Of a stretch of 64,000 nucleotides of DNA, positions 12,807-25,564 are shown piece by piece; the stretch's first letter is position 1, and each line of letters starts with the position of its first letter. The DNA is taken from assembly GCA_028874335.1 (NCBI GenBank), contig JAPPJY010000058.1:59309-123308 (forward strand), written 5' to 3'. Source of the stretch: Gemmatimonadota bacterium. Its GTDB lineage: Bacteria > Latescibacterota > UBA2968 > GCA-2709665. A model generated the notes under the pieces. That model made no database searches. It was not told where the DNA came from and worked only from the letters and a program-made list of their open reading frames with translations. A program made the position numbers and the translations under genes.

Positions 12807-15800
12807 TTACGTGCCAACCGGATCGTACGCAAGGCCGAACACTGTATCAGCCATCCAGCGCTTGAAGTCCTTGTCGTCCATATATCGCTTGAACAGTTCG
12901 GTGTCATCCTTCATCACTCCGGTCATCACGCGCAGCAGCGCCTTGTCGTGCTCGATGCGCGCATTCTGCCGATCGGAGTTCACCCGGGCGTTTCGGAACG
13001 CGGTGTCGGCGGCGACGCGGGCCGGAATGGTTTCTGTGATGAGCTGCTTGACGCGGTCTCTATCCTCCCATTCGATATCTCCGAAATGTTCGTTGAATAC
13101 GCGAAGTATGTTTGAGAGTCGGTCCAATTCCAGCTCCTGTTGATGCCCTCCCCCTGAACCCGGTACCGGATCGATCTCGGCATCTTCGTCCTCTAACAGG
13201 ATCTTTTGCATCGCCCGCTTCTCCACCCGGTAGCTGTCCAGGTCGATCGCATCGAGGATTCCCTTGGAAAGATCCTCTTCCTCGGGCGCCGGCAATTTCG
13301 GCACCAGGAAATTCAGGAAAATCGAACGCTTTTCCCATTCGGCAACATTGTACGGAAGGACGGATGAGAGAAAGGCGTACGTTCGCACGAATGCTTTGGC
13401 GTTGCCCTTGAATGCGACCTGGCCGTCTTCGTCCAGGTCGTGTCGATAGACCGCGACACAAACGTCCAGGATCGGATCGAGCAGGTCGCGTTCCACCCCA
13501 TCCAGATAGAGCCGCACAAATTCGTCGATCTGCGTTTCGGAATAGACCTGGGCGCCGTCCAGCTCGGCCTGCAGGTCGTGCAGCTTGTTCGGGTCGGTTT
13601 CGTCGGCCAGAATCGTCGTCTTGTAGAAGTCAGAAAACGCATCTTGAATCGTATCGGTGTCGTTGAGAAAGTCGAAAACGAACACGTCGTGTTTCTTCGG
13701 GTGGGCCCGGTTGAGGCGAGACAGCGTCTGCACGGCCTTGATGCCGGACAGCGTCTTGTCGACGTACATGGTGTGCAGCAGGGGCTCATCGTAGCCGGTC
13801 TGAAATTTGTCCGCGCACACCAGAAACCTGTACGGATCCTCCTGAAATCGCCTGGCGATCTGGGCCGAAGGCAGGCCGGTCAGTGACGCCTCGCTTACCC
13901 TGCCGCCGCCGAAATCATGTTCGCCGGAGAACGCGACCAGCGCCTCAAATTGGCTCTTGCGCTCCTTGAGATACTCGCGGATGGCATGATAGTACTGAAT
14001 CGCGCGCTCGATGCCGTTCGTGACCACCATCGCCCGCGCCGCGCCGCCGATCTTGCCCTGCTTCAGCACCTGGTCGTGGAAGTGGTCGACCATGATCTCG
14101 GCCTTCAGACGGATCGCGTGCCCACTGCCCTCCACGAAGCGACGCAGCTTCTTCTGCGCCTTCCGAGCGTCGAATTCGGGGTCGCCTTCGACCGTCTTCG
14201 CCAGCTTGTAGTAACTCGCCACAGGCGTATAGTGCGACAGTACGTCCAGGATGAATCCTTCCTGGATCGCCTGCTTCATGGTGTAGCTGTGGAAGGCGCG
14301 ATGCCGCACCGTACCGTCAGGCTGCGACTCCGGAGCGCCGAAGATCTCGAGCGTTTTATTCTTCGGCGTGGCGGTAAACGCGAAGTAGCTGGCGTTCGGC
14401 AGGAGCTTTCGCGACTCCATCAGACGGTTGATCCGGTCCTCAAACGTATCCTGATCGTCCTCTTCGCCCGCCTCCGACAGCGCCTGAGCCATCGCCGCGC
14501 TGGTGCGCCCCCCCTGGCTCGAGTGGGCTTCGTCGATGATGATGGCGAAGCGCTTCCCCCGTTGTTCATTGCCAATTTCGTCCAGAATGAACGGAAACTT
14601 CTGGACCGTGGAAATGATGATTTTCTTTCCGCTCTCGATAAACTCGCGCAGATCGCCCGAACGGTCGGCGTGTCCTACCGTGGCCGCCACCTGGGCGTAT
14701 TGCTTGATCGTGTCGCGAATCTGGCGGTCCAGGATGACCCGATCCGTGACGACGATGATCGAGTCGAAGACCGGAGCGTCGTCCTTCTCCAGCCCGATCA
14801 ACTGGTGCGCGAGCCAGGCGATGGAGTTGCTCTTGCCGCTGCCGGCTGAGTGCTGGATCAGGTATCGCTGACCGGCGCCGCGGTCGCCCGCGTCGGCCAG
14901 CAGTCGGCGCACCACGTCGAGTTGATGGTAACGCGGCCAGATCTGAGTCTTTCGACTCCTTCCGCTCTTTTCGTCCTTCGACGCCACTACCTGCGCGTAA
15001 TTCTCGAGGATGTTGGTTAGGCTCTCCCGGGTGAGCACTTCGCGCCAGAGATAGGCGATTGAAAGACCGTCCGGATTGGGCGGGTTACCCGCGCCGTCGT
15101 TCCAGCCGCGGTTGAAAGGCAGAAACCAGGAGGCCTTCCCCTTCAGATGCGTACAAAAACGCACCTCGCGTTCGTCCAACGCGAAGTGCGCGATGCAGCG
15201 CCCGAACTCGAACAGCTTCTCACGCGGGTTCCGGTCCTTTTTGTACTGCCAGACCGCATCGTCCACCGTCTGTTTGGTGAGGCTGTTCTTCAACTCGAAC
15301 GTGAACACCGGCAATCCGTTGACGAACAGCCCGATGTCCAGCGCCCGCTGTGCCTCGTCCCGGCTGTAGCGAAGCTGCCGCGTAACGGTAAACCGGTTCA
15401 GCTCGAACAATTCCTGCGCCTGCGGGTTGCCGGCCGAGGGCGTGCCGTAGAACAGCTCCAGGTTCAACGCCCCGTGCTTTATGCCGTTACGCAGCACGTC
15501 GATGGTGCCGCGCTTGCTGATTTCGCCCTGGAGACGGGTCAGAAATGCGCGCCGCACGGGACCGGCCTGACCTGGTAGGGGCGACCGGCCGGTCGCCCGT
15601 GCACCGTTGGTTGCCATTCCAACCGCGTCGGCGGCCTCCGGCTGCGTGGCGCGCAGGAATGCCGACAGTTGCGCCAGATCGACGCAGAACTCACGGTCAT
15701 AGTCGTGGTGATTACCGCAGCTCCAGCCGACACCGCCGTAACCGGCGGGCGGTTCTCCCACGGTGCCCGAAACAGGGGGCTCGCAGCCCTGGCCCGTCAG

Positions 15801-15851
15801 GGCGGCGCAAATCAGGCGTTCAAGCCCGCGTTCAGAGGTATCAGTGTTCAC
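12807..15851 (-). CDS. hsdR: Type I restriction enzyme R subunit
   Basis: 1014 aa with GTG start. Walker A HSAGSGKSNSIAW and DEAH box IIIDEAHSSQGG, with typical HsdR N- and C-terminal regions. It contains an in-frame REP palindrome at 15579-15598. Confidence 0.95.
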   Translation of the reverse strand: MNTDTSERGLERLICAALTGQGCEPPVSGTVGEPPAGYGGVGWSCGNHHDYDREFCVDLAQLSAFLRATQPEAADAVGMATNGARATGRSPLPGQAGPVRRAFLTRLQGEISKRGTIDVLRNGIKHGALNLELFYGTPSAGNPQAQELFELNRFTVTRQLRYSRDEAQRALDIGLFVNGLPVFTFELKNSLTKQTVDDAVWQYKKDRNPREKLFEFGRCIAHFALDEREVRFCTHLKGKASWFLPFNRGWNDGAGNPPNPDGLSIAYLWREVLTRESLTNILENYAQVVASKDEKSGRSRKTQIWPRYHQLDVVRRLLADAGDRGAGQRYLIQHSAGSGKSNSIAWLAHQLIGLEKDDAPVFDSIIVVTDRVILDRQIRDTIKQYAQVAATVGHADRSGDLREFIESGKKIIISTVQKFPFILDEIGNEQRGKRFAIIIDEAHSSQGGRTSAAMAQALSEAGEEDDQDTFEDRINRLMESRKLLPNASYFAFTATPKNKTLEIFGAPESQPDGTVRHRAFHSYTMKQAIQEGFILDVLSHYTPVASYYKLAKTVEGDPEFDARKAQKKLRRFVEGSGHAIRLKAEIMVDHFHDQVLKQGKIGGAARAMVVTNGIERAIQYYHAIREYLKERKSQFEALVAFSGEHDFGGGRVSEASLTGLPSAQIARRFQEDPYRFLVCADKFQTGYDEPLLHTMYVDKTLSGIKAVQTLSRLNRAHPKKHDVFVFDFLNDTDTIQDAFSDFYKTTILADETDPNKLHDLQAELDGAQVYSETQIDEFVRLYLDGVERDLLDPILDVCVAVYRHDLDEDGQVAFKGNAKAFVRTYAFLSSVLPYNVAEWEKRSIFLNFLVPKLPAPEEEDLSKGILDAIDLDSYRVEKRAMQKILLEDEDAEIDPVPGSGGGHQQELELDRLSNILRVFNEHFGDIEWEDRDRVKQLITETIPARVAADTAFRNARVNSDRQNARIEHDKALLRVMTGVMKDDTELFKRYMDDKDFKRWMADTVFGLAYDPVGT
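15579..15598. repeat. REP palindrome copy 1 (inside hsdR, in frame)
   Basis: gggcgaccggccggtcgccc, read as ...GARATGRSPLPG... in the HsdR N-terminal region. Confidence 0.9.
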
Positions 15852-16152
15852 CCTCGGCCTCCGCCCGCGCGCGGGCCCGGTCGTACAGCTCCTCTCGAGA
15901 CAGGTTGTCGGCGGTCCTGAATCCGGGTGAAGTGGTGCGGATTTTATCTGAAACCTCGTTCAACATACTGCGCCGACGCTCGGCCTCTTGCTCCGTGACC
16001 GGCCCGTTGTCCGCTGTGCCGCCTGCGCGGTCCGCTGCAAGACGCCTCAGGTAGTCTCGCACGAGTGCCGATACCGACGTGTCCAATTCTGCCGCACGGA
16101 TACGCGCGAGCCGATGTGTCTCTTCGTCAACGGATACGGTAATATTTCTCAT
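15841..16152 (-). CDS. Ribbon-helix-helix (CopG/VapB-like) protein, full-length copy (RHH-1); overlaps the hsdR start by 11 nt
   Basis: Start set at MRNITVSVDEETHRLARIRAAELDTSVSALVRDYLRRLA. 103 aa. The TGA at 15841-15843 lies inside hsdR codons 1-4. Confidence 0.75.
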   Translation of the reverse strand: MRNITVSVDEETHRLARIRAAELDTSVSALVRDYLRRLAADRAGGTADNGPVTEQEAERRRSMLNEVSDKIRTTSPGFRTADNLSREELYDRARARAEAEGEH

Positions 16153-16367
16153 TGTCACAGCCTCACAGTTTCTGTGTAGCACAGTATCGTCATCAACTGG
16201 CCCACGGACAAGACCTGCGGCTGGGCGGGTTACCATCTTGACGTGGTAAAGGCACCTTCGAAACCTGTCCCCTACAATCGGACCCCGGAGGCGATTGCAG
16301 CGATAGCCGACCAGGGTCGTTCATACAGGACGCACCAGCGCCTTCTCGCTGGTGTCGGTGGTCCGCA

Positions 16368-16703
16368 CTATGCTTCGCCTATCATCGGGATGGGGACTTC
16401 CCGGACTTCTCCAGACTTGATCCCCTCGATAGCAGTCCGAATGGCTTCCGTTCCCTCCATCGGATAAGGCCAAGTGGTGGAGAGCAGTACGATCACGGAC
16501 AGACGCCGATCAGCAAGGTTCTGCTGAAACCTCATACTTTGGTCGGTAGTGACAAGCAGTTCGTAGCCCTCACTGTTCGCAACGTCCAGCAGGTCGCCGT
16601 TGCCAAGCCTGTCCCAACCTCTCTCTTTCGCGGTATCGACCTCGTGACCGTGGAGCTCCCTTCGGAGCGGCGCAGGAGTTCAGTGATCAAACAGTATCTT
16701 CAA
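16368..16703 (-). pseudogene. DUF5615 (PIN-like/Mut7-C-like toxin partner of DUF433) with an in-frame TGA at codon 8
   Basis: Own translation: (TTG)KILFDH*TPAPLRRELHGHEVDTAKERGWDRLGNGDLLDVANSEGYELLVTTDQSMRFQQNLADRRLSVIVLLSTTWPYPMEGTEAIRTAIEGIKSGEVREVPIPMIGEA*. The TGA at 16680-16682 sits where the paralogue at 17641-17802 has Gly (MRILFDNGTP). Confidence 0.7.
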
Positions 16704-16935
16704 GGCTGCTCACCGGCACGGACGCCTTCAGCGAGTCGGCCACGTGCTGGAGGACCGCCCTTACCTTCCACTCATCCTCCATCTGGAACCACTCCATGAA
16801 TTCCTCGACGGTGGCGCCGGCCTCCAGATTCTCGAACAAGGCGGATACAGGCAGTCTGCTGTCGGTGAACACCCAGGCCCCACTCACCCTGCCAGGCACG
16901 CTCTCCACCCCAGGGCACTTCGACCAGTCAATCAT
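16687..16935 (-). CDS. DUF433 domain protein (copy 1)
   Basis: MIDWSKCPGVESVPGRVSGAWVFTDSRLPVSALFENLEAGATVEEF, a DUF433 pattern. Confidence 0.8.
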   Translation of the reverse strand: MIDWSKCPGVESVPGRVSGAWVFTDSRLPVSALFENLEAGATVEEFMEWFQMEDEWKVRAVLQHVADSLKASVPVSSLEDTV

Positions 16936-17002
16936 AATCTCACCTCCGCTGCAACAGTGTGCTCTTCTGTCGATGCTTCGGCGTCAGCCATGCACATTGT
17001 GA

Positions 17003-17251
17003 TCAAACAGGATTTGCGTGCGTGACCCTGGCGACCCTGGCATCAAGTTCTTCCACTACGAATTCCAGAACCGCTCGCACCTTTGCTTCGTCAACCCTGC
17101 CGAACCATTCGATAAAGTCGTGGACCGTTGCGCCTTCCTCAAGGTTGCCGAAAAGGGCCGACACAGGCAGCCGGGTCCCTTTGAACACCCAGGCCCCGCT
17201 CACTTTGCCAGGCACGCTCTCCACCGCGGGACACTTGCTCCAGTCGGTCAT
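17003..17251 (-). CDS. DUF433 domain protein (copy 2)
   Basis: MTDWSKCPAVESVPGKVSGAWVFKGTRLPVSALFGNLEEGATVHDF. It is followed by only a 9-codon DUF5615 stub (QILFDHNVHG*). Confidence 0.8.
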   Translation of the reverse strand: MTDWSKCPAVESVPGKVSGAWVFKGTRLPVSALFGNLEEGATVHDFIEWFGRVDEAKVRAVLEFVVEELDARVARVTHANPV

Positions 17252-17393
17252 TCGGCCACCTCTCTTTCGATTGTGTGCTCTTCCGTCGATTCATCAGCGT
17301 CCGCCAGGCGTCTGTGGGCAAAACGTAAACGTGTCGTCTTTCACCACAACCGAATCCGCCGATGTTGGTAGTGATTTTCTCAATCACCGCGTG

Positions 17394-17585
17394 CTACATC
17401 CCGCGACGGCGTTCGGCTTCCGTCTCAACGTCCTGCCCTTCGGCCGTTGTTCTGCCGACGCCGTCGGCAGCCAGGTTCTTCAGAAAGTCTCGCACGAGTG
17501 CCGATACCGACGTGTCCAACTCTGCCGCACGGATACGCGCAAGCCGATGGGTCTCTTCGTCGACGGATACGGTAATATTTCTCAT
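17394..17585 (-). CDS. RHH protein, truncated paralogue (RHH-2); a TAG replaces a sense codon of RHH-1
   Basis: MRNITVSVDEETHRLARIRAAELDTSVSALVRDFLKNLAADGVGRTTAEGQDVETEAERRRGM*. The sequence after the stop still aligns to the RHH-1 C-terminal half (…IEKITTNIGGFGCGERRHVYVL vs …SDKIRTTSPGFRTADNLSREELY). Confidence 0.6.
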   Translation of the reverse strand: MRNITVSVDEETHRLARIRAAELDTSVSALVRDFLKNLAADGVGRTTAEGQDVETEAERRRGM

Positions 17586-17640
17586 GGTCACAGCCTCACA
17601 TTTTCTGTGTATCACAATATAATCAATAACTTACGGATGG

Positions 17641-17802
17641 TCAATCCCCACGGGCGCGCGCGCGGCCATCCGGATCGGCGGTGTCGATAAATTCTCCGTT
17701 GGCCAACCCGTCCCATCCACGTTCTCTGGCCTCTTCGACGACATGGCCGAAGAGCCGGACGCGCAACTGCCTGGGTGTCCCGTTATCGAACAGGATGCGC
17801 AT
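17641..17802 (-). pseudogene. DUF5615 toxin, 3'-truncated (about 50 of about 111 codons)
   Basis: MRILFDNGTPRQLRVRLFGHVVEEARERGWDGLANGEFIDTADPDG... then diverges and stops. Its start overlaps the DUF433 copy 3 stop. Confidence 0.65.
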
Positions 17803-18025
17803 GAACCACCCTGGTACGGAGTTCCTGTGCCGCATGGTCCAGCACTGCCTTCACCTCCGATTCATCAACACCTCCGAACCACTCGATGAAGTCGTGGATG
17901 GTCGCGCCCGCCGCAAGGTTCTCGAAGAGGACGTACAGCGGCAGCCGGGGCCCTTTGAACACCCAGGCCCCACTCACCTTGCCAGGCACGCTCTCCACCA
18001 CCGGGCATTTCGACCAGTCAATCAT
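17783..18025 (-). CDS. DUF433 domain protein (copy 3)
   Basis: MIDWSKCPVVESVPGKVSGAWVFKGPRLPLYVLFENLAAGATIHDF. Confidence 0.8.
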   Translation of the reverse strand: MIDWSKCPVVESVPGKVSGAWVFKGPRLPLYVLFENLAAGATIHDFIEWFGGVDESEVKAVLDHAAQELRTRVVHAHPVR

Positions 18026-18283
18026 ATGCTTACCTCCGCTGCAACTATGCGCTTTTCTGCAGGTTCATCAACGTCCGTCAGGTGTATGCGATCAAACCGT
18101 AAACGTGTTGTGGTTCACCACAACTGAATCGGCCGCCGTTGGCCGTGATCACACCTGTCCAAACACGGGTTTGATTAACTACGAAAGTCGCGAAATATAT
18201 GGCTGGAAAAATCGTCCATAAACGCGAACCAATGGCAACCTGGTCTCCATTGTCCGGGTCAAACCAGCACATAATCGCCACGA

Positions 18284-18322
18284 GTGTGTCTTCTCGTCGA
18301 CGGATACGGTGATGTTCCTCAC
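18284..18322 (-). pseudogene. RHH gene stub (13 codons, RHH-3)
   Basis: GTG-RNITVSVDEKTH matches the first 13 codons and the upstream leader (cacagaaactgtgaggctgtga) of RHH-1/2, and homology is then lost. Confidence 0.6.
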
Positions 18323-18406
18323 AATCACAGCCTCACAGTTTCTGTGTGACAAAATATACCCATTTGCCGGTCGATGGGCAACAGTTGCGGCGGTGCGGGA
18401 AGCCCG

Positions 18407-18434
18407 GTAGGGGCGACCGGCCGGTCGCCCCTAC
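18407..18434. repeat. REP palindrome copy 2 (28-nt perfect palindrome) overlapping the hsdS stop codon
   Basis: gtaggggcgaccggccggtcgcccctac. The hsdS TAG (18431-18433) lies inside the right arm. Confidence 0.9.
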
Positions 18435-19828
18435 GTGACTAGTTGCTCGCAAGAGTACTTATTTGTCGATTCGTCTTCCTCAGGCAGTTCAGCCGCCGCC
18501 TCGCGCACATCGAGCTTACCTGTGACGACATCGGCGATCAGGCGGGTGCGGTATTCCTGGACGAGAGCGATTTCTCGATTTGTTCGTTCGATCGCCTTTT
18601 CCAGCCCGCTCGTTTTCTCAGAAATCGCCTTGAGAATGGTTAACTGCTCTTCCAGAATTGGAAGAAGAACCGGGAACTTGCGCAGTGTGTTGCTATTGGT
18701 GGATGCAAGGTTCGTCGTCTTCTTTGCGGTGAATTCGAAATATGCCCGCCCGTGGATTGAACCCATTAGCCCAACCAGAAACTCCGGGCTCAGCAGCCCC
18801 CGCCGACATCGTACCGCAAAGATGTGATTCTGGTGTAAACATCCTGGGATCTCATCTCGCCAGACACACCCACGCCCAAGTTTGTCGATATCTCCGCCTT
18901 CGGTCATCAAAACGTCGCCGGGCAACAAGGCAGCCCGAGCCGCTTCATCCCGGGGAACATCGATAGACTTGACCTGCGATAGGTCCAAACAACCTGCCTG
19001 AACATTAGCAACTCGCAGATATGGTCTAGATATCGTTTGCGTACTCCTATAATCTTTGCCCAACGTGAGACCGGTTTGAACTTGTGCGACATCCTTGAGG
19101 CGGAGAAACTGCCAATGCTCCGGCACATCGCCCAGCCACTCCACAACGGAGGCCTCGTAGGCCGGATAGGGCTGGCCGGTTCGGACGTCGATTTGGCCCG
19201 TAACGGCCTGGTGGATGATGGCCTGCTTCTGCTCCTCCAGCAGCGCAATCAGCTTCTGCTTGGCGCGGATGTAGCGCTGGATGCGCCGGTCGGCGTGGTC
19301 GAGGAAACGGACGATAGCGGACTGCTCGGGAACTGGTGGGAGTGGCAGGTACGAACGGGCGAGACTTTCGTAGTCTATGTTTTGGCCCTGACGAATACCT
19401 GTGACGAATAGCGACAGATTCTCGATGTACGGGCGTGATTTAAACACTCTGGCAAGATAAGCGTGGTGATCTGGAACACGTGGACATAGAATCGTGTATG
19501 CAGGGCTGATTATTCCTTGTTCTCGCGCAAACTCGATACCTCCTTGAAACGATCTCAAACTAATTACAAAGTCGCCGACGCGTACAATCTTGAGCAATTC
19601 GAGATCCTTCAATGCAAGCACCGTGCGATTCTCGTACTTCTCCTTTCGCACAACTCCTTTGGTCTGCGTAGCTGCCAGTAATGGCTCGTTAGGGTAACCC
19701 TTTTCGCTTCGCTGGACAAGAAGACTCTTCGTTCTCCTAAGTTCCCAATGCTTGGGCACCTTCCCCAGCCAATCGACGCCGGTGTCCATATAGTCAGGAT
19801 AGGGTTTGAGATTCGAGGTTATCATCAT
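18431..19828 (-). CDS. hsdS: Type I restriction-modification S (specificity) subunit
   Basis: 465 aa with two target-recognition regions, each followed by a conserved helical repeat (...IALLEEQKQAIIHQAVTGQIDV... and ...IALVQEYRTRLIADVVTGKLDV...). Confidence 0.9.
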   Translation of the reverse strand: MMITSNLKPYPDYMDTGVDWLGKVPKHWELRRTKSLLVQRSEKGYPNEPLLAATQTKGVVRKEKYENRTVLALKDLELLKIVRVGDFVISLRSFQGGIEFAREQGIISPAYTILCPRVPDHHAYLARVFKSRPYIENLSLFVTGIRQGQNIDYESLARSYLPLPPVPEQSAIVRFLDHADRRIQRYIRAKQKLIALLEEQKQAIIHQAVTGQIDVRTGQPYPAYEASVVEWLGDVPEHWQFLRLKDVAQVQTGLTLGKDYRSTQTISRPYLRVANVQAGCLDLSQVKSIDVPRDEAARAALLPGDVLMTEGGDIDKLGRGCVWRDEIPGCLHQNHIFAVRCRRGLLSPEFLVGLMGSIHGRAYFEFTAKKTTNLASTNSNTLRKFPVLLPILEEQLTILKAISEKTSGLEKAIERTNREIALVQEYRTRLIADVVTGKLDVREAAAELPEEDESTNKYSCEQLVT

Positions 19829-19831
19829 CTA

Positions 19832-20419
19832 TCACCATTGTAGGGGCGACCGGCCGGTCGCCCGTGTGCCGATTGGATCCCGGCCGTCCCTATTGGCAGG
19901 ATTCTCCGGGTCTTTCGACCATCCGGGCGGGTTAACCGCGATGTATTGCCGAATCCAATACAGCGTGGATTCGTTTCTGATAATGTGTTCGTAGTAATTG
20001 CGCTGCCATACCAATGCGCCGGGAGTGCCGCGCATGGCGTTGATGCGTTTGGTTACGGCAGATTTGAATCCAGCCATCATGGCGCCGAGTGACTTCGGTC
20101 GCGGACCGCCACGGGCGACCGGCCGGTCGCCCCTACGGCTTTCGTCGGCTATTATGACGATGCCGTGAACATGGTTGGGCATGACAACCCAGGCATCCAG
20201 TTCAATCTCGCTGCGGATCCATGCGGATTGTAGCCACTCCTCTTCGACTATCCAGCCCAATTCGTTCAGCGCCATCTCACCATCTTTCACTTCGCCGAAC
20301 AGTAATTCCCTCCCGACTGTGCAGACGGTGATAAAATATGCGCCTGCTCTCGAATAGTCGTTGTCGCGCAATCGGATCGCGCGACGGCGACGTATCTCTG
20401 GATCGCATGAGGCGTTCAT
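19832..20419 (-). CDS. REP-associated tyrosine transposase (RAYT, IS200/IS605-like Y1 HUH family)
   Basis: Start at MNASCDPEIRRRRAIRLRDNDYSRAGAYFITVCT. HUH motif PNHVHGIV and catalytic-Tyr region RNYYEHIIRNE. REP palindromes lie inside the ORF (20113-20132) and at its 3' end (19844-19863). Confidence 0.8.
   Translation of the reverse strand: MNASCDPEIRRRRAIRLRDNDYSRAGAYFITVCTVGRELLFGEVKDGEMALNELGWIVEEEWLQSAWIRSEIELDAWVVMPNHVHGIVIIADESRRGDRPVARGGPRPKSLGAMMAGFKSAVTKRINAMRGTPGALVWQRNYYEHIIRNESTLYWIRQYIAVNPPGWSKDPENPANRDGRDPIGTRATGRSPLQW
19844..19863. repeat. REP palindrome copy 3
   Basis: gggcgaccggccggtcgccc, encoding the RAYT C-terminal ATGRSP. Confidence 0.9.
20113..20132. repeat. REP palindrome copy 4 (inside the RAYT ORF, in frame)
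   Basis: gggcgaccggccggtcgccc, read as RGDRPVARG between the HUH and Tyr motifs. Confidence 0.9.
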
Positions 20420-20590
20420 TATGCCCTCGGAACTTCGCACAGCAACGATTCCATCTCTTTCTCCACCAACAGGATACCCGCACGTATTTCTTCCAGAGTC
20501 CGCATCGGCTGGGGCTCGTAACAGTACAGGGTGAAGCTGATTTCGTATCCGATTCTTACGCTGTCCGGTTGATACCAAGCTTCAGCGCCC
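20419..20590 (-). pseudogene. Relic 3' end of an hsdM gene with its natural stop
   Basis: Own translation: ...AEAWYQPDSVRIGYEISFTLYCYEPQPMRTLEEIRAGILLVEKEMESLLCEVPRA*. The live HsdM has ...AADAWHQTDSVKIGYEISFTRYFYKPQPMRTLEEIGADILALEKETEGLLGDLPLV. The TAA overlaps the RAYT ATG (TAATG). Confidence 0.75.
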
Positions 20591-20653
20591 GACGCCTGGC
20601 ACTCGCGCCGTCGGCTTTCAATTGGACCGAACTATTATTGTTTTCCTTGCTCT

Positions 20654-20995
20654 CTACAGGTATTCAACAGCCGAGTCGTTGCCATGTTGTGTCGGCTCTT
20701 GGATCTTTCGCGGAATCTTCGAAGAGAATTTCTGTCGCAAGGAATCTATAAATGATCGACTCTCCTCGAGCGATCGGTCAATCTCATTCTGATGATCGAA
20801 ATAGTAAGCCAGTGCTGCGTACACATCCGCAAGAGTTATATCGTAATCATTGGCGATTTCGTCGGCGCTCCTGCCCAGCCGCTCGTGCCAGATGATGATA
20901 TTCTCCACGGTAATTCGACGACCGGCTATACGTGGTTTACCGCCTGAAATGCCCGGGGTGATCTCGATATGTTGATTCAGAGTTTCCGTTGTCAT
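20654..20995 (-). CDS. DUF433 domain protein (copy 4, classical subtype)
   Basis: Start at MTTETLNQHIEITPGISGGKPRIAGRRITVENIIIWHERLGRSADEIANDYDITLADVYAALAYY. The upstream part of the 171-aa ORF is a REP/RAYT fragment. Confidence 0.8.
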   Translation of the reverse strand: MTTETLNQHIEITPGISGGKPRIAGRRITVENIIIWHERLGRSADEIANDYDITLADVYAALAYYFDHQNEIDRSLEESRSFIDSLRQKFSSKIPRKIQEPTQHGNDSAVEYL

Positions 20996-21160: not shown

Positions 21161-21245
21161 ACGGTTCACCGTATAACTGAAATTCCAGCATACGCGGAAT
21201 GCCTTCGGCTCAGCCGTCCCGATGTTCTGCTGACCTGTTCTGCGC

Positions 21246-21424
21246 TTATTTGCGTATTCGCGCGGCCATTGCCTCCAGCACGGGGTCGGAATACCGCTTC
21301 GAATTGAACCACGTTACCATTTCCTCGGCAGTCATGCCGGCGGTCTCCGCGGTTATGCGGGCGCGGGCCTGGCGCATGAATTCGACACAGTCGAATTTCT
21401 TTTTCTTGGAGTGTCATCAGTCAT
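21246..21424 (-). pseudogene. Small-protein paralogue A1, 1-nt deletion after codon 5
   Basis: ATGACTGATGACAC-tccaagaaaaagaaattcgac here vs -ccggaagaaaaagaaattcgac in A4. The downstream frame reads KKKKFDCVEFMRQARARITAETAGMTAEEMVTWFNSKRYSDPVLEAMAARIRK*. An internal ATG at 21377 could still give a 43-aa product. Confidence 0.65.
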
Positions 21425-21506
21425 GGATGATCTCCTCTGGCCTGCGAACGTCTATAGCGGCGTATCCCTCTTGACGATTGACGTCGTTGTAGGCTCTAAT
21501 GCGCCG
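21417..21506 (-). pseudogene. Relic 3' end of a PIN gene
   Basis: RRIRAYNDVNRQEGYAAIDVRRPEEIIHD* vs the HsdM-PIN C-terminus RRIRAYNEVNRQNGYPAIDIRTPEEIVHD*. The same ATGACTGA stop/start overlap with the following A gene is present. Confidence 0.7.
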
Positions 21507-21551
21507 GAATTCTTCTATGCAGGATAAGGCATCGGGCCAGGGATCATGGAG

Positions 21552-21800
21552 TCAACCAAAGAGAGTTTCCCGTACTTCGCGTTTGGACAGACCAAGAAAC
21601 TCCGCCACGTCGGCGATGATTCCATCAAGCGTCCCGACTCGCACATCCCGATGCCTCGGTACTGTCACGCTGTGCCGGTTACTGTCGATTGTCAACGTCA
21701 CAGTCATGTGGTTGCCTTTGGTTCGCGTCACGAGGTAGCCATAGTGACGCGTGAGCCGCCTGGCAACCTCGTTTCCAGCGAGGTCGCGGGGCAGTTTCAT
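21552..21800 (-). CDS. HicA-family toxin (second, divergent copy)
   Basis: MKLPRDLAGNEVARRLTRHYGYLVTRTKGNHMTVT...HSVTVPRHRDVRVGTLDGIIADVAEFLGLSKREVRETLF. Confidence 0.7.
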   Translation of the reverse strand: MKLPRDLAGNEVARRLTRHYGYLVTRTKGNHMTVTLTIDSNRHSVTVPRHRDVRVGTLDGIIADVAEFLGLSKREVRETLFG

Positions 21801-22024
21801 ACCGCGATGGCCTCCACTCTGACCAAATGCAGTCTGATCACTCGCGGCATGTTCTCGCCGTCAAAATGACAACGCACTGCGTCTCGTACCATAGCCTTCA
21901 GGTCGTTCCAGTCTTCTCCCTGCGTGAAGATGCTATGCCCGAGCGCTCTGGCGTCGTATCCGCCTTCAACCGCTTCAGTTACCTCGAAAATGATCTCGCT
22001 CTGTCTCATCTGTATATCCTCCAT
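21797..22024 (-). CDS. HicB-like antitoxin (short form)
   Basis: SEIIFEVTEAVEGGYDARALGHSIFTQGEDWNDLKAMVRDAVRCHFD...VIRLHLVR. Overlaps the HicA start by 4 nt (ATGA). The true start may be the M at 22009. Confidence 0.65.
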   Translation of the reverse strand: MEDIQMRQSEIIFEVTEAVEGGYDARALGHSIFTQGEDWNDLKAMVRDAVRCHFDGENMPRVIRLHLVRVEAIAV

Positions 22025-22351: not shown

Positions 22352-22549
22352 TCACCCTCTTTTGCCTTCGTCCAATTCGCGCAAAGGCACCGCCAGTCGT
22401 TCCAGAACAGGGTCGTCATAACGATACGTACGATAGTATTGGATTCGCTCCGCATGGCTCATGCCGGCTGTTTCCTCGGCAATCCTCGCACGGACTTCCC
22501 GCACAAAGCGGTTGCAGTCGAACCTCTCGCCAGCGGCTTCATGGGTCAT
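22352..22549 (-). CDS. Small-protein paralogue A2 (candidate antitoxin-like protein)
   Basis: MTHEAAGERFDCNRFVREVRARIAEETAGMSHAERIQYYRTYRYDDPVLERLAVPLRELDEGKRG. It shares FDC..R.vRaRI.eE.AGM...E...DPVLE with A1, A3 and A4. Confidence 0.6.
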   Translation of the reverse strand: MTHEAAGERFDCNRFVREVRARIAEETAGMSHAERIQYYRTYRYDDPVLERLAVPLRELDEGKRG

Positions 22550-22607: not shown

Positions 22608-22847
22608 TTATTTATCGCAATCGGAGCCGGACCGGCCGCCGTCGTTTGCCCCATCGTCCTGCCAGGGTCGCACAACCCTGGACTTCGGAATGCGAGCGAA
22701 GTAGGGATCCTTGCCGACAGCCGCATTGAGCCGACGGCGCCGCTCTTCAGGGGACATTCCCGCCAGTTCCGCGTTGATCCGGTCCCGGACCTCGCGCGTC
22801 CATTTTATGCAGTCGAAAGCCTTTGTGTTGCTCTCACGCTTCTTCAT
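22608..22847 (-). CDS. Small-protein paralogue A3
   Basis: MKKRESNTKAFDCIKWTREVRDRINAELAGMSPEERRRRLNAAVGKDPYFARIP... Confidence 0.6.
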   Translation of the reverse strand: MKKRESNTKAFDCIKWTREVRDRINAELAGMSPEERRRRLNAAVGKDPYFARIPKSRVVRPWQDDGANDGGRSGSDCDK

Positions 22848-22914
22848 TTGCAAGCTCCATCCGGCTGCGCATGTCCACCAGGTGGTGCCCAAAGCGCTTC
22901 GGTTTCCCTTCGGT

Positions 22915-23130
22915 TCAGCTGTCGGAACTGTCTGTTGGCCCGTCCTGCGTGGATTTGCGTATTCGCGCGGCCATTGCTTCCAGCACGGGGTCGGAATACC
23001 GTTTGGAATTGAACCACTCAACCATTTCCTCGGCAGTCATGCCGGCGATTTCGGCGGTAATTCGGGCGCGGGCCCGGCGCATGAATTCGACAGAGTCGAA
23101 TTTCTTTTTCTTCCGGGTGTCATCAGTCAT
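22915..23130 (-). CDS. Small-protein paralogue A4; its start overlaps the HsdM-PIN stop
   Basis: MTDDTRKKKKFDSVEFMRRARARITAEIAGMTAEEMVEWFNSKRYSDPVLEAMAARIRKSTQDGPTDSSDS. The ATG at 23130-23128 lies in the sequence cATGACTGAtg, where the hsdM-PIN TGA is 23125-23123. Confidence 0.7.
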   Translation of the reverse strand: MTDDTRKKKKFDSVEFMRRARARITAEIAGMTAEEMVEWFNSKRYSDPVLEAMAARIRKSTQDGPTDSSDS

Positions 23131-23584
23131 GGACGATTTCCTCCGGCGTACGAATGTCAATAGCGGGGTATCCGTTTTGACGATTGACCTCGTTGTAGGC
23201 TCTGATACGCCGCCAATTCACCATGTGCCTGAAATTCCAGCTAACCAGGACGTCGGCTCTGGCGAGAGTCGCGGTGGCAATGTGCAGCGCGTCGGCCCGG
23301 TTGGCGCCACCTATGGCGCCAGCCGTTATGTAGGCATCGGCAAGCTCTCTCGCTTCTCTCGAAACGGCGAGTATTTCCGTGTGTTCCGAGGGAACGGCGC
23401 TGGTCGCCTGCCTGACGGGGAGCGAAGCATCCGCGAGTTCATCCAGGGTGATGTTCGAGATGAGCATCGTGGCGTCCCCCTGGCGAAAAACCTCGAACAG
23501 CCGCGTCGATTGTTCGCGGAATTCATCGTCATGGCAACCGCCGATCACCGAGGTATCCACGTAGATGCGCGGCTTGCCGTACAC
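23123..23584 (-). other. PIN (VapC-like) domain segment of the HsdM ORF; possible internal GTG start at 23584
   Basis: (V)YGKPRIYVDTSVIGGCHDDEFREQSTRLF...NRADALHIATATLARADVLVSWNFRHMVNWRRIRAYNEVNRQNGYPAIDIRTPEEIVHD. The conserved acidic positions are D in YVDTS, E in DDEF, D in ADALH and D in ADVLV. Confidence 0.75.
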
Positions 23585-25564
23585 AGCCGGCGGTTCGCGC
23601 ACCAGCGGCAGATCGCCGAGCAGCCCCTCAGTCTCTTTCTCCAGCGCCAGAATATCCGCCCCAATTTCCTCCAGGGTCCGCATGGGCTGGGGCTTGTAAA
23701 AATACCGTGTAAAACTGATTTCGTAGCCGATTTTTACGCTGTCCGTTTGATGCCACGCGTCAGCGGCGTAGGGCAGGACCTCTCGCTGCAGAAACGCTTC
23801 GATGCCGCCTTCTTCCTGTAGTGGAATCTGCTCGGTGTCGCGCAGGTCGGTGTCCGGTTCGTACTCGACCACGACGGGCCTGCCGTCGACAGTAGCCTCG
23901 AACCGGCCGCGCAGCGGGTCGGCTTCCGTGCCTCTCTTGTGTACCCTTTTTATCACTGGCGACGCGGTTTCGCTTCGTTCGCAAGTCTCCTTTAACTTCT
24001 TGATTTCGGAGGCCTTATATGCACGGTTGGGGTCAATTTCTTCGAGCCGAAGCGGCCTTTCGACTGTCACCTTCCAGTATCCGAAGGCGGCGTTGTCGAA
24101 GATCTTGCTCTGTTCAGTTTCCTCGAAGGCCAGAAACGTGTCGCAGATGCGCCGGACGTCCTCCTCGCCGAGTTCACAGTTCTTCTTGCCCAGGTTCTTG
24201 CGCAGCGGCCGGTACCACTCGGTGGCATCGATCAACTGCACCTTGCCCCGGCGATGCTCCGGCTTCCGGTTGGTGATCACCCACACGTAGGTGGCGATGC
24301 CGGTGTTGTAGAACATATTGAGCGGCAGCGAGACAATCGCCTCCAGCCAGTCGTTCTCGATGATCCAGCGCCGGATATTGCTCTCTCCCTGCCCGGCGTC
24401 GCCCGTGAACAGCGAACTGCCGTTATGCACCTCGGCGATGCGGCTGCCACCCTCCTTCATCTTGGAGAGTTTGTTAGCCAGAAAGAGCATCTGGCCGTCG
24501 CTGGACCGGGTAACCAGCGAATACTCGGGATCGTCGGCGTGCTCGATCACAAAGCGCGGGTCCCGCATTTCCTTTTTGCCGCCCATGCGCTCCAGATCGG
24601 TCTTCCAACTCTTCCCGTAGGGCGGATTCGAAAGCATGAAGTCGAACTCGCGGGACGGGAAGGCGTCGTTGGCCAGGGTGGAATGCTCAGGGCCGCCGAC
24701 GATGTTGTCGGCCGCGTCTCCTTCACCCTTCAGGAGAAGGTCGGCCTTGCAGATGGCGTAGGTCTCGGCGTTGATTTCCTGGCCATACAGGTGGGTGGAG
24801 ACCTGCTCACCGCGCTCGGCTGCGAGTTGCTGGAGCACCTCTTCAGCCACGGTCAACATGCCGCCTGTACCGCACGCGCCGTCGTAGATCAGGTAGGTGC
24901 TGGATGTAATTTCGTCAGCGACGGGCAGGAAGACCAGCTTCGCCATCAGCGTCACCGCATCGCGCGGCGTCCAGTGTTCCCCCGCCTCCTCGTTGTTCTC
25001 CTCGTTAAAGCGCCGGATCAGCTCCTCGAAGATCGTCCCCATGCCGTGGTTGTCCAGGCCAGGGTGTCTGACCGAACCATCGCCGTTGTGCACCGGATCC
25101 GGGCTCAGGTTGACGTCCGGAGAAGTGAGTTTTTCGATCAGCGTACCCAACGCATCGGCCCTGGAAAGACGGGGTACCTGGTTTCGGAATTCGAAGTTTT
25201 CAAGGATGTCCTGCACGTTTGGCGAGAACCCGTCCAGCCAGGCCCTGAAGTCGGCCTCGAGCTGCTGGCGGTTTGCACGGGCGCGCAGGTCGCGCAGAGT
25301 GAACCTGGAAGTATTGTAAAAGTCCTGTCCCGCAGCCTGTCTCAACGGCTCTTCCTGTTCGACCAAGCCGATTTGTTCGAGGTTTGCCTGCATGTCCAAA
25401 ACCGCCTGCTTGCTATCCTCCAGTACCGCGTCCAGCCTGCGCAGTACGGTCATCGGCAGGATCACGTCGCGGTACTTGCCGCGGACGTACAGGTCGCGGA
25501 GGACGTCGTCGGCGATTCCCCAGATATAGTTCGCGATCCAGTTCAGGTTGGCGTTGGTTGTCAT
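23123..25564 (-). CDS. hsdM: Type I R-M methyltransferase subunit HsdM fused in frame to a C-terminal PIN domain
   Basis: 813 aa. HsdM N-terminus MTTNANLNWIANYIWGIADDVLRDLYVRGKYRDVILPMTVLRRLD, AdoMet region YDGACGTGGML and motif IV NPPYGK. There is no stop before the PIN-like 153-aa tail. Confidence 0.9.
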   Translation of the reverse strand: MTTNANLNWIANYIWGIADDVLRDLYVRGKYRDVILPMTVLRRLDAVLEDSKQAVLDMQANLEQIGLVEQEEPLRQAAGQDFYNTSRFTLRDLRARANRQQLEADFRAWLDGFSPNVQDILENFEFRNQVPRLSRADALGTLIEKLTSPDVNLSPDPVHNGDGSVRHPGLDNHGMGTIFEELIRRFNEENNEEAGEHWTPRDAVTLMAKLVFLPVADEITSSTYLIYDGACGTGGMLTVAEEVLQQLAAERGEQVSTHLYGQEINAETYAICKADLLLKGEGDAADNIVGGPEHSTLANDAFPSREFDFMLSNPPYGKSWKTDLERMGGKKEMRDPRFVIEHADDPEYSLVTRSSDGQMLFLANKLSKMKEGGSRIAEVHNGSSLFTGDAGQGESNIRRWIIENDWLEAIVSLPLNMFYNTGIATYVWVITNRKPEHRRGKVQLIDATEWYRPLRKNLGKKNCELGEEDVRRICDTFLAFEETEQSKIFDNAAFGYWKVTVERPLRLEEIDPNRAYKASEIKKLKETCERSETASPVIKRVHKRGTEADPLRGRFEATVDGRPVVVEYEPDTDLRDTEQIPLQEEGGIEAFLQREVLPYAADAWHQTDSVKIGYEISFTRYFYKPQPMRTLEEIGADILALEKETEGLLGDLPLVREPPAVYGKPRIYVDTSVIGGCHDDEFREQSTRLFEVFRQGDATMLISNITLDELADASLPVRQATSAVPSEHTEILAVSREARELADAYITAGAIGGANRADALHIATATLARADVLVSWNFRHMVNWRRIRAYNEVNRQNGYPAIDIRTPEEIVHD

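Follow-up and report, generated by a model that had tools for sequence, protein, structure and literature searches.

The hsdM-PIN gene and its product

The window analysed here, a stretch of 64,000 nucleotides of contig JAPPJY010000058.1 (deposited as Gemmatimonadota bacterium), contains a complete type I restriction-modification (R-M) system, whose hsdM, hsdS and hsdR genes all lie on the minus strand. Its hsdM gene (positions 23123..25564) is a single open reading frame (ORF) of 813 residues with no internal stop codon, in which the methyltransferase subunit is continued at its C-terminus by a domain predicted to be a VapC-like PIN ribonuclease. On the same strand the ORF is followed by a small gene, denoted A1 (22915..23130; read directly from the sequence), which encodes a partner protein of 71 residues, a putative antitoxin.

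Residues 1–653 (23606..25564, minus strand) constitute the HsdM module. They matched the Pfam families HsdM_N (E 7e-20) and N6_Mtase (E 4.5e-52), NCBIfam models and the PADLOC model of type I methyltransferases, MTase_I (E 2.7e-237), and contain both the S-adenosylmethionine (AdoMet)-binding motif DGACGTGG and the catalytic motif NPPYGK; the ORF had been described as a long-form HsdM in a first-pass annotation made from the letters of the window, and these matches and motifs confirm that description. The PIN domain (residues 663–813, 151 residues; 23126..23578, minus strand) is connected to HsdM by the nine-residue linker LVREPPAVY (residues 654–662; 23579..23605, minus strand), for which the predicted local distance difference test (pLDDT) of our structure model is below 50. 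The linker, whose sequence varies among fusions, spans the interval between the natural end of HsdM and the residue equivalent to the start methionine of free PINs, and the fusion point coincides exactly with the natural HsdM C-terminus. No stop codon interrupts the frame at the junction, so the methylase does read into its tail without a stop, as the first-pass annotation had stated, and the gene is a true in-frame fusion.

A search with the full 813 residues, the figures of which rest on the 120 best database homologues, showed that the architecture is not confined to the window. All 120 were 75–96% identical to the query over 85–100% of its length, and 119 of them were fusions of 793–865 residues, many of which are encoded on megabase-size contigs. 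In these 119 fusions, the position corresponding to the start methionine of free PINs was occupied by glycine 49 times, by alanine 23 times, by lysine and threonine 11 times each, by valine nine times and by serine six times, and by methionine in none (0/119); in the window, no Shine-Dalgarno sequence is visible upstream of the PIN domain. The PIN domain is therefore made as part of HsdM, to judge from these sequences, and the fusion is its expressed form.

An artefact or pseudo-fusion caused by a missed stop codon, a frameshift or a chance open frame in GC-rich DNA is extremely improbable. High-GC DNA does yield long chance ORFs, many overlapping ORFs are present in the window, and the Pfam PIN scores of the window tail lie below the gathering thresholds. 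The 119 independent full-length fusions, however, keep both the frame and the catalytic residues in many assemblies, megabase-size contigs included, which excludes chance, sequencing error and a missed stop; in addition, the tail is confidently predicted to adopt a PIN fold and its substitution pattern indicates purifying selection (see below). A syntenic locus, L001, which shares 80–86% DNA identity with the window in its flanks, carries the same gene with 812 residues. Together with the 119 fusions it also rules out a local loss of the stop codon.

Fold and active site of the PIN domain

The last 160 residues of the window protein scored 23.6 bits against the Pfam family PIN_3 (cutoff 27) and 22.3 bits against PIN (cutoff 23.6), in both cases just below the gathering threshold. 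At the level of the family the assignment is better supported, as 45 of 47 aligned members matched PIN_3 at E ≤ 0.01 (4e-6 for the best). With the tail as query, 1334 relatives were found; most of the 120 listed are about 152 residues long and about 60% identical to it, and some are labelled 'PIN domain protein' at source. The tail had no match in PADLOC, NCBIfam or the phage collection, and a profile search of the PDB with the PIN sequences gave none either.

An AlphaFold2 (AF2) model of the tail, built on the family alignment, yielded a pLDDT of 89.7 and a predicted template modelling score (pTM) of 0.85, with disorder confined to the first eight residues, which belong to the linker. The 25 best Foldseek matches of this model in the PDB were all PIN or PIN-like proteins (probability 1.0, TM scores 0.48–0.61), among them AF1683, Pyrococcus horikoshii VapC4, Shigella VapC, Mycobacterium tuberculosis VapC20 and FitB. 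Model and matches together indicate the three-layer α/β/α architecture of PIN domains.

In all 119 full-length fusions the residues D670 (followed by Thr-Ser), E709, H761, W776, N777 and H780 are invariant; D758 is conserved in 118 and D771 in 116 of them. The catalytic candidates are D670, E709, D758 and N777 or D771; a PIN metal site is characterized by three to four acidic residues and a Thr/Ser after the first Asp. Counted from the methionine of the free form, the candidates lie at D8, E47, D96 and N115, a VapC-like spacing when set beside the catalytic residues D7, E42, D98 and E119 of Shigella VapC. The ratio of non-synonymous to synonymous substitutions (dN/dS) was 0.16–0.31 for the PIN part and, determined against L001 and another relative, L003, 0.07–0.09 for the HsdM part, values from which we conclude that purifying selection acts on the PIN tail. 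As modelled, the tail thus comprises the whole of a PIN domain, in which the acidic site is intact, and is a predicted nuclease. The resemblance to a stand-alone PIN toxin on which the first-pass annotation had remarked is borne out by the predicted fold, the Foldseek matches and the family-level PIN_3 matches, and the acidic residues are indeed conserved in relatives.

Distribution and origin of the fusion

We scanned genomes at one genome per species; the locus counts given here and below rest on the best 80 loci. The PIN motif was found in at least 591 species genomes. An in-frame HsdM-PIN gene, with an open frame of 814–948 residues, was present in 17 of the 80 loci, which belong to Latescibacterota, Gemmatimonadota (including Longimicrobiales), Acidobacteriota (Bryobacterales, Vicinamibacteria and Thermoanaerobaculia) and one metagenome-assembled genome of Pseudomonadales. 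In all fused loci examined hsdS lies downstream of the fusion gene, and hsdR was found wherever the locus reaches far enough. A search of cluster representatives was of little use for counting fused against free forms, because the fusions are merged by clustering at 50% identity and the representatives are in many cases fragmentary.

In a neighbour-joining tree, the fused PINs and orphan PINs (those attached to a mere hsdM fragment, see below) form one clade nested beside the free PINs, which points to one ancient capture. The fusion architecture, which is conserved in more than 100 protein clusters, is by these sequence comparisons old and of single origin, and the fused PINs are one clade within a large family of free modules composed of a PIN gene and a gene of the A1 type (denoted PIN+A). 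In the first-pass annotation the fusion had been interpreted as a local derived event, brought about by stop loss or capture; the more than 100 clusters and the single clade contradict that interpretation. It had also missed that the small gene downstream of PIN is present throughout the family and that PIN and this partner form a large two-gene family of their own.

The family also shows decay and rearrangement. P0231 is an HsdM-PIN protein whose PIN part is frameshifted, hsdM is disrupted upstream of an intact PIN+A in loci L005 and L053, and in P0287 and P0327 the hsdM 3' end runs through into hsdS.

The idea that HsdM serves as a carrier of many different C-terminal effectors was rejected, as the other long extensions turned out to be hsdS read-through or scrambled sequence. 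On one metagenome contig of 2853 nt (P0325), an hsdM 3' fragment is in frame with a TIR_2 domain (E 2e-25). The hsdM part is absent from every other homologue of this TIR domain, so that P0325 appears to be a one-off chimera.

The partner gene A1 and its family

The ATG of A1 overlaps the stop codon of the PIN domain (ATGACTGA), and a GGAGGA sequence is situated at a suitable distance, 8 nt upstream of it. A1 is probably coupled in translation to the fusion gene. Using a profile derived from A1 and two further genes of the window, A2 and A3 (see below), we found an A-family ORF of 45–90 residues next to PIN in 78 of the 80 genome loci, irrespective of whether the PIN was fused or free. The ORF abuts or overlaps the PIN stop codon, and its product is characterized by the motif K-x-F-D-x-V-x-x-M-R-x-x-R-D-x-(L/I)-S-x-E. 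The pairwise identities of PIN domains and their A partners are correlated (Spearman 0.55), a value reached in none of 300 label permutations, and the closest relatives of A1 are the partners of the closest PINs. Moreover, natural single-chain PIN-A proteins exist (P0259, P0358, P0372 and P0370); for P0259, AF2 models the A segment as three helices with a pLDDT of 92–96.

Comparison of the A family with Pfam, NCBIfam, PADLOC and the PDB revealed no credible relative; the PDB profile search gave only a weak, apparently spurious match to an engineered repeat protein (E 0.0075). A1–A3 had no match in the phage collection, and beside the free PINs no upstream ORF is conserved, neither one of the VapB antitoxin type nor any other. 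To judge from gene order and covariation, PIN and A constitute a large, toxin-first, toxin-antitoxin (TA)-like two-gene family with an unannotated partner.

Free PIN+A modules are also found on Leptospira plasmids, where they adjoin a replication gene and where the two genes again overlap by 8 nt. On the Leptospira interrogans plasmid pLiSL47 (L083, positions 2486–3131), the module directly follows the replication initiator gene. The annotation pipeline PGAP names the PIN protein of the Leptospira plasmid pair 'type II toxin-antitoxin system VapC family toxin' and its partner 'hypothetical'.

Such plasmid-borne modules bear on the question of whether PIN+A is a selfish hitch-hiker, namely an addiction module that became fused by stop loss and that stabilizes itself and the locus, with no defence role and no functional dependence on the methylase. 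Besides the free modules on plasmids, the crowding of the locus by TA modules (HicAB, three DUF433 genes and RHH-like ORFs in the window; HigBA in the related locus L002) and the decay of some fused copies (P0231, L005 and L053) are consistent with it. We nevertheless consider it rather unlikely, because PIN has stayed in frame and without a start codon of its own across three phyla and in more than 100 clusters, with an invariant active site, and because reversion or decay should be more frequent if the read-through were accidental. It also overlaps with the addiction role that forms part of the reading we propose below, from which it is hard to separate by sequence alone.

Probable exchange of cassettes at the hsdM 3' end

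Among the fusions, similarity of the PIN domain is decoupled from that of HsdM. For P0137 the identity is 94% in HsdM and 100% in the linker and only 57% in PIN, and the corresponding values for P0144 are 87% in HsdM and 81% in PIN. The closest relatives of the window tail include proteins of 186–278 residues in which a C-terminal HsdM fragment is joined in frame to PIN (P0001, P0003, P0007, P0008, P0010 and P0074). Orphan modules of this kind, consisting of an hsdM 3' fragment, PIN and A, are located downstream of the main hsdM gene in L001, L002 and L004; the main gene itself is fused in L001 and L004 and is stopped in L002, where it has 657 residues and is followed by HigBA. A second PIN copy is present in L023, L044 and L053.

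The window contains two intact orphan A-family genes and several relics, all on the minus strand. A2 (22608..22847) encodes a protein of 79 residues and of a type different from A1; its best match, at 88% identity, is a solitary copy in L001, and its next-best relatives (~50%) are partners of other PIN alleles. A3 (22352..22549; 65 residues), which like A2 was recognized by the A-family profile, represents a third type; in L004 the partner of the orphan PIN shares 80% identity with it, and that orphan PIN is itself only 61% identical to the window PIN. The closest relatives of both genes accompany PIN alleles that are absent from the window genome; A2 and A3 may neutralize such foreign PINs or may be remnants of earlier swaps. 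Further downstream lies a relic of a PIN 3' end (21420..21509), which ends in FRRIRAYNDVNRQEGYAAIDVRRPEEIIHD followed by two stops and aligns in tblastn with PIN residues 129–158 at 77% identity; its region forms a direct repeat with 23106–23250. Beside it is A4 (21213..21413), a decayed copy of A1 that is 77% identical to A1 residues 11–71, has lost its start codon and is shifted in frame relative to the PIN relic; as DNA it is an 85% repeat of 22900–23112.

A relic of the hsdM 3' end, recognized as a DNA repeat of the hsdM-PIN gene, is found at 20428..20610 (minus strand) and reads EKEMESLLCEVPRA or GYEISFTLYCYEPQPMRTLEEIRAGILLVEKEMESLLCEVPRA, each followed by two stops. An alignment of 181 nt with 23606–23786 gives 76% DNA identity (82% in the best 134 nt) and breaks off precisely where HsdM and PIN are joined. 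Decay is visible in the relic, which has FTLYCYEPQP in place of FTRYFYKPQP and ends two codons before an IS200-like transposase gene. Its terminal residues, EVPRA, are nearer to the start of a fused-type linker, DLPLV, than to the end of an unfused HsdM, EEIIGGGGK with its stop (L002). Because of this resemblance, the relic is more likely debris of cassette recombination, as far as its sequence tells, and is unlikely to be an ancestral unfused hsdM end. An hsdM relic stopping at the junction had been placed at 20419–20590 in the first-pass annotation; the relic exists, with the limits given above, and the recent local fusion that it was thought to mark is not supported.

Mosaicism of this kind points to recombination, and it suggests that PIN+A cassettes are swapped at the hsdM 3' end as in the toxin arrays of CdiA and Rhs. 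The co-varying, allele-specific and orphan partner genes, which are typical of toxin/immunity pairs, also bear on the proposal that the PIN domain serves the restriction complex as a nuclease arm directed against the nucleic acid of an invader (for example single-stranded DNA, R-loops or phage transcripts close to where the complex is bound), with A as an adaptor or regulator rather than an antitoxin. PIN-like domains include DNA flap and 5' nucleases, one Foldseek match of our model was PcrIIC1 (8wmm_G), a PIN-like protein that works with Cas9, and PIN nucleases beside HsdM and HsdS have been proposed as possible restriction modules (Matelska et al. 2017, PMC5499597). On the other hand, a full HsdR with nuclease and motor domains of its own is present in all fused loci, the closest structural matches are VapC toxins, and free PIN+A occurs without R-M genes, also next to a plasmid rep gene. 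Taken with the behaviour of the partner genes, these observations make a nuclease arm quite improbable.

Proposed function of the fusion

By analogy with VapC, we propose that HsdM-PIN is a TA-type RNase tethered to the methylase and neutralized by A1, and that it provides an abortive-infection or addiction arm, a reading that we hold with somewhat better than even confidence. The VapC-like PIN nuclease would be joined by a short flexible linker to the natural C-terminus of HsdM, and A1, a small helical protein, would bind the PIN domain and keep it inactive. The first-pass annotation had suggested a latent RNase coupled to R-M in abortive infection or addiction, an idea that is plausible. M-PIN and A1 would represent a toxin-first TA module which one hsdM lineage acquired in a single event, at the 3' end of the gene, and which has moved together with the complete hsdM-hsdS-hsdR system ever since. 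Upon expression of the operon each M-PIN chain would be made together with A1 and remain silent. If the supply of A1 failed, as might happen when a phage shuts off host expression, when the locus is lost or perhaps when the methylase/specificity core is disturbed, the PIN domain would cleave cellular RNA and arrest growth. The restriction system would in this way gain an abortive-infection or addiction arm, and the toxin could not be lost without loss of the methylase. Homologous recombination through the conserved hsdM 3' end would exchange PIN+A cassettes and leave behind orphan modules, orphan A genes and hsdM and PIN relics, of which A2, A3, A4 and the two relics of the window would be examples.

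This reading starts from a conserved architecture whose tail has the fold and the active site of a PIN domain, from a conserved partner that co-varies with it, from a fusion of single origin and from a locus that is mosaic. The signs of a TA relationship are indirect, namely the overlapping genes, the covariation, the PIN-A fusions and the confidently predicted A fold in the fused chain. Several points weigh against the reading. We infer RNase activity, toxicity and neutralization by A1 from the VapC analogy, and what we suggest as the trigger of PIN activation is likewise inferred. The fourth canonical acidic position of the PIN domain is occupied by the invariant N777, with D771 nearby, so that the site has three certain acidic residues and an atypical fourth position. 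No DNA-binding domain and no known antitoxin domain is recognizable in A, and its gene follows that of the toxin, whereas the gene of VapB precedes it; A could for these reasons act as an activator, an adaptor or a chaperone rather than as an inhibitor. Shared ancestry accounts for part of the covariation between PIN and A, and pTM decreased from 0.85 for PIN alone to 0.71 for the PIN-A chain. The PIN tree is a neighbour-joining tree with no bootstrap, and P0231, L005 and L053 are decaying. Finally, the sole hint that ties PIN activation to the state of the R-M complex is a non-recurrent fusion of A to HsdS.

That fusion was found in the Longimicrobiales locus L052 (10696–12282), which also has HsdM-PIN: here a second paralogue of A and a full-length HsdS share one continuous reading frame, giving a protein of 528 residues that mirrors the toxin-methylase fusion. 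A general fusion of the antitoxin to HsdS was rejected, since a metagenome scan with the L052 junction returned ordinary HsdS genes only.

The L052 protein is one of the observations that would fit a guard mechanism in which the PIN domain is silenced mainly by assembly of the M2S (or R2M2S) complex and is triggered by an anti-restriction protein of the Ocr, ArdA or Stp type or by unmodified DNA, A1 being only a safety catch during synthesis or assembly. In type I structures (EcoR124I, 7BST; TteMTase, 5YBB) the C-terminal helix of HsdM packs on the coiled coil of HsdS, and as the fusion point lies exactly at the natural HsdM C-terminus, PIN would sit on the assembly core if the C-terminus of the window protein packs in the same manner. 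In addition, hsdS and hsdR are kept in all fused loci. The solved HsdM proteins, however, align only to the catalytic core, which makes the geometry of PIN on M2S an assumption, and the A-HsdS fusion is a single case. Furthermore, hundreds of genomes, and plasmids as well, have PIN+A as a free module with no hsd gene less than 10 kb away, so control by A is sufficient there. The precedents for a guard are two latent anticodon nucleases encoded inside type I R-M loci, PrrC (with EcoprrI) and RloC (PMC3710099, PMC3506569). With these systems HsdM-PIN shares a predicted latent RNase in an hsdM-hsdS-hsdR locus and a plausible role as a second line if restriction fails, and the embedding takes its most extreme form here, a covalent fusion. 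PrrC and RloC, by contrast, are separate proteins with ABC-ATPase and HEPN domains, and the window PIN is fused to the methylase and has a dedicated small partner; no ATPase or HEPN domain was matched in the 813-residue protein or in A1–A3 (Pfam, NCBIfam and PADLOC). On balance, we regard silencing mainly by complex assembly as unlikely.

Cassette exchange and methylase control could also be combined. The methylase would then be the carrier of an exchangeable toxin cassette and the RNase would be wired into the M2S core, to be released when restriction or modification is disturbed, whether by anti-restriction proteins or by loss or imbalance of subunits. HsdM-PIN would in that case correspond to PrrC in a covalent and polymorphic form and would bring with it an antitoxin family not recognized before, which we consider possible but doubtful.

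Comparison with known systems

The TA-type RNase that we favour shares with VapC and other PIN toxins the fold (Foldseek probability 1.0) and a similar size of about 150 residues, the two-gene organization, in which a small protein co-varies with the toxin, and the presence of free copies on plasmids. It differs from known VapC proteins in that the window PIN is only 12–22% identical to solved PINs, in that the fourth acidic position is Asn, and in that the toxin is covalently attached to HsdM in the fused clade. Unlike in VapBC, the partner lies downstream and is without a ribbon-helix-helix (RHH), AbrB, Phd or helix-turn-helix domain, which places the pair outside canonical VapBC.

The organization of the locus also resembles that of CdiA-CT/CdiI and Rhs-CT/RhsI, in which a conserved main gene ends in a fast-diverging C-terminal toxin and is followed by an adjacent gene for a small protein. 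In both cases the orphan modules keep a conserved 3' piece that is usable for homologous recombination, and orphan immunity-like genes accumulate; orphan toxin/immunity arrays of CdiA and Rhs loci have been described (PMC3967940). Unlike in CdiA and Rhs, all swapped toxins belong to one PIN family, and the carrier is an intracellular DNA methyltransferase. Pfam matches for the genes of the window locus, L001 and L002 included no secretion-related domain, and with a cytoplasmic carrier the likeness is therefore one of locus architecture only. Cassette swapping has so far been described for secreted polymorphic toxins, and the present data point to it inside a defence locus.

PIN genes and TA modules, DUF433-PIN_10 among them, have been catalogued beside type I R-M genes by Matelska et al. 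2017 (PMC5499597), where PIN-family genes are linked to hsdM/hsdS in transcription, and the window and its relatives likewise carry DUF433 and PIN_10-type cassettes. That catalogue describes neighbours only, with no direct interaction between TA and R-M shown and no HsdM-PIN fusion (PMC5499597). According to Anantharaman et al. 2013, the fusion partners of RNase toxins associated with R-M systems are nuclease or motor subunits and not methylases, a generalization that the HsdM-PIN fusion contradicts. Our search of the published literature for HsdM with PIN, a fusion or TA found no description of an HsdM-PIN fusion, in keeping with the first-pass annotation, in which no characterized example was named. 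HsdM-PIN is thus a conserved, widespread and apparently undescribed protein family, members of which are at present labelled only 'N-6 DNA methylase', the name of the only named protein among the 120 best homologues.

The coupling of R-M systems to abortive infection or TA has one well-studied case, PrrC, and many cases of guilt by association; here the link is covalent, and any regulation of the RNase by the methylase complex becomes directly testable in a single polypeptide. An R-M-embedded latent RNase or TA module is of a known kind. The covalent join of toxin and methylase, the partner family and the cassette-swap arrays are new, and the toxin-first module of PIN and a small protein is now defined in at least 591 species genomes, with a partner that has no relative in Pfam, NCBIfam or the PDB.

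Other features of the window locus

The specificity subunit HsdS (465 residues) is encoded at 18431..19828 (minus strand) and matched PADLOC Specificity_I (E 6.6e-92) and Pfam Methylase_S. The restriction and translocase subunit HsdR (1014 residues; 12807..15851, minus strand) contains HSDR_N, ResIII, SWI2_SNF2 and T1R_D3 domains and is syntenic with HsdR of L001.

A 20-nt palindrome, GGGCGACCGGCCGGTCGCCC, occurs in seven copies in the 64-kb window, where none is expected by chance. None of the copies (15579, 18411, 19844, 20113, 21044, 22142 and 25579) lies outside the R-M locus, and most of them mark the boundary of a gene or cassette; among them is the IS200-like Y1 transposase gene (19832–20419, minus strand; weak Y1_Tnp match). 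Palindrome and transposase look like a REP/RAYT pair that may help to shuffle cassettes.

Between the PIN/A cassettes and the hsdM relic are a HicB-like/HicA pair (21552–22024, minus strand) and a DUF433 gene (20654–20995, minus strand); in relatives this slot is occupied by HigBA or DUF433-PIN_10. The region between hsdS and hsdR (16000–18400, minus strand) contains tandem diverged repeats of 63–80% identity, which carry two DUF433 genes and small RHH/FitA-like ORFs and some copies of which are decayed.

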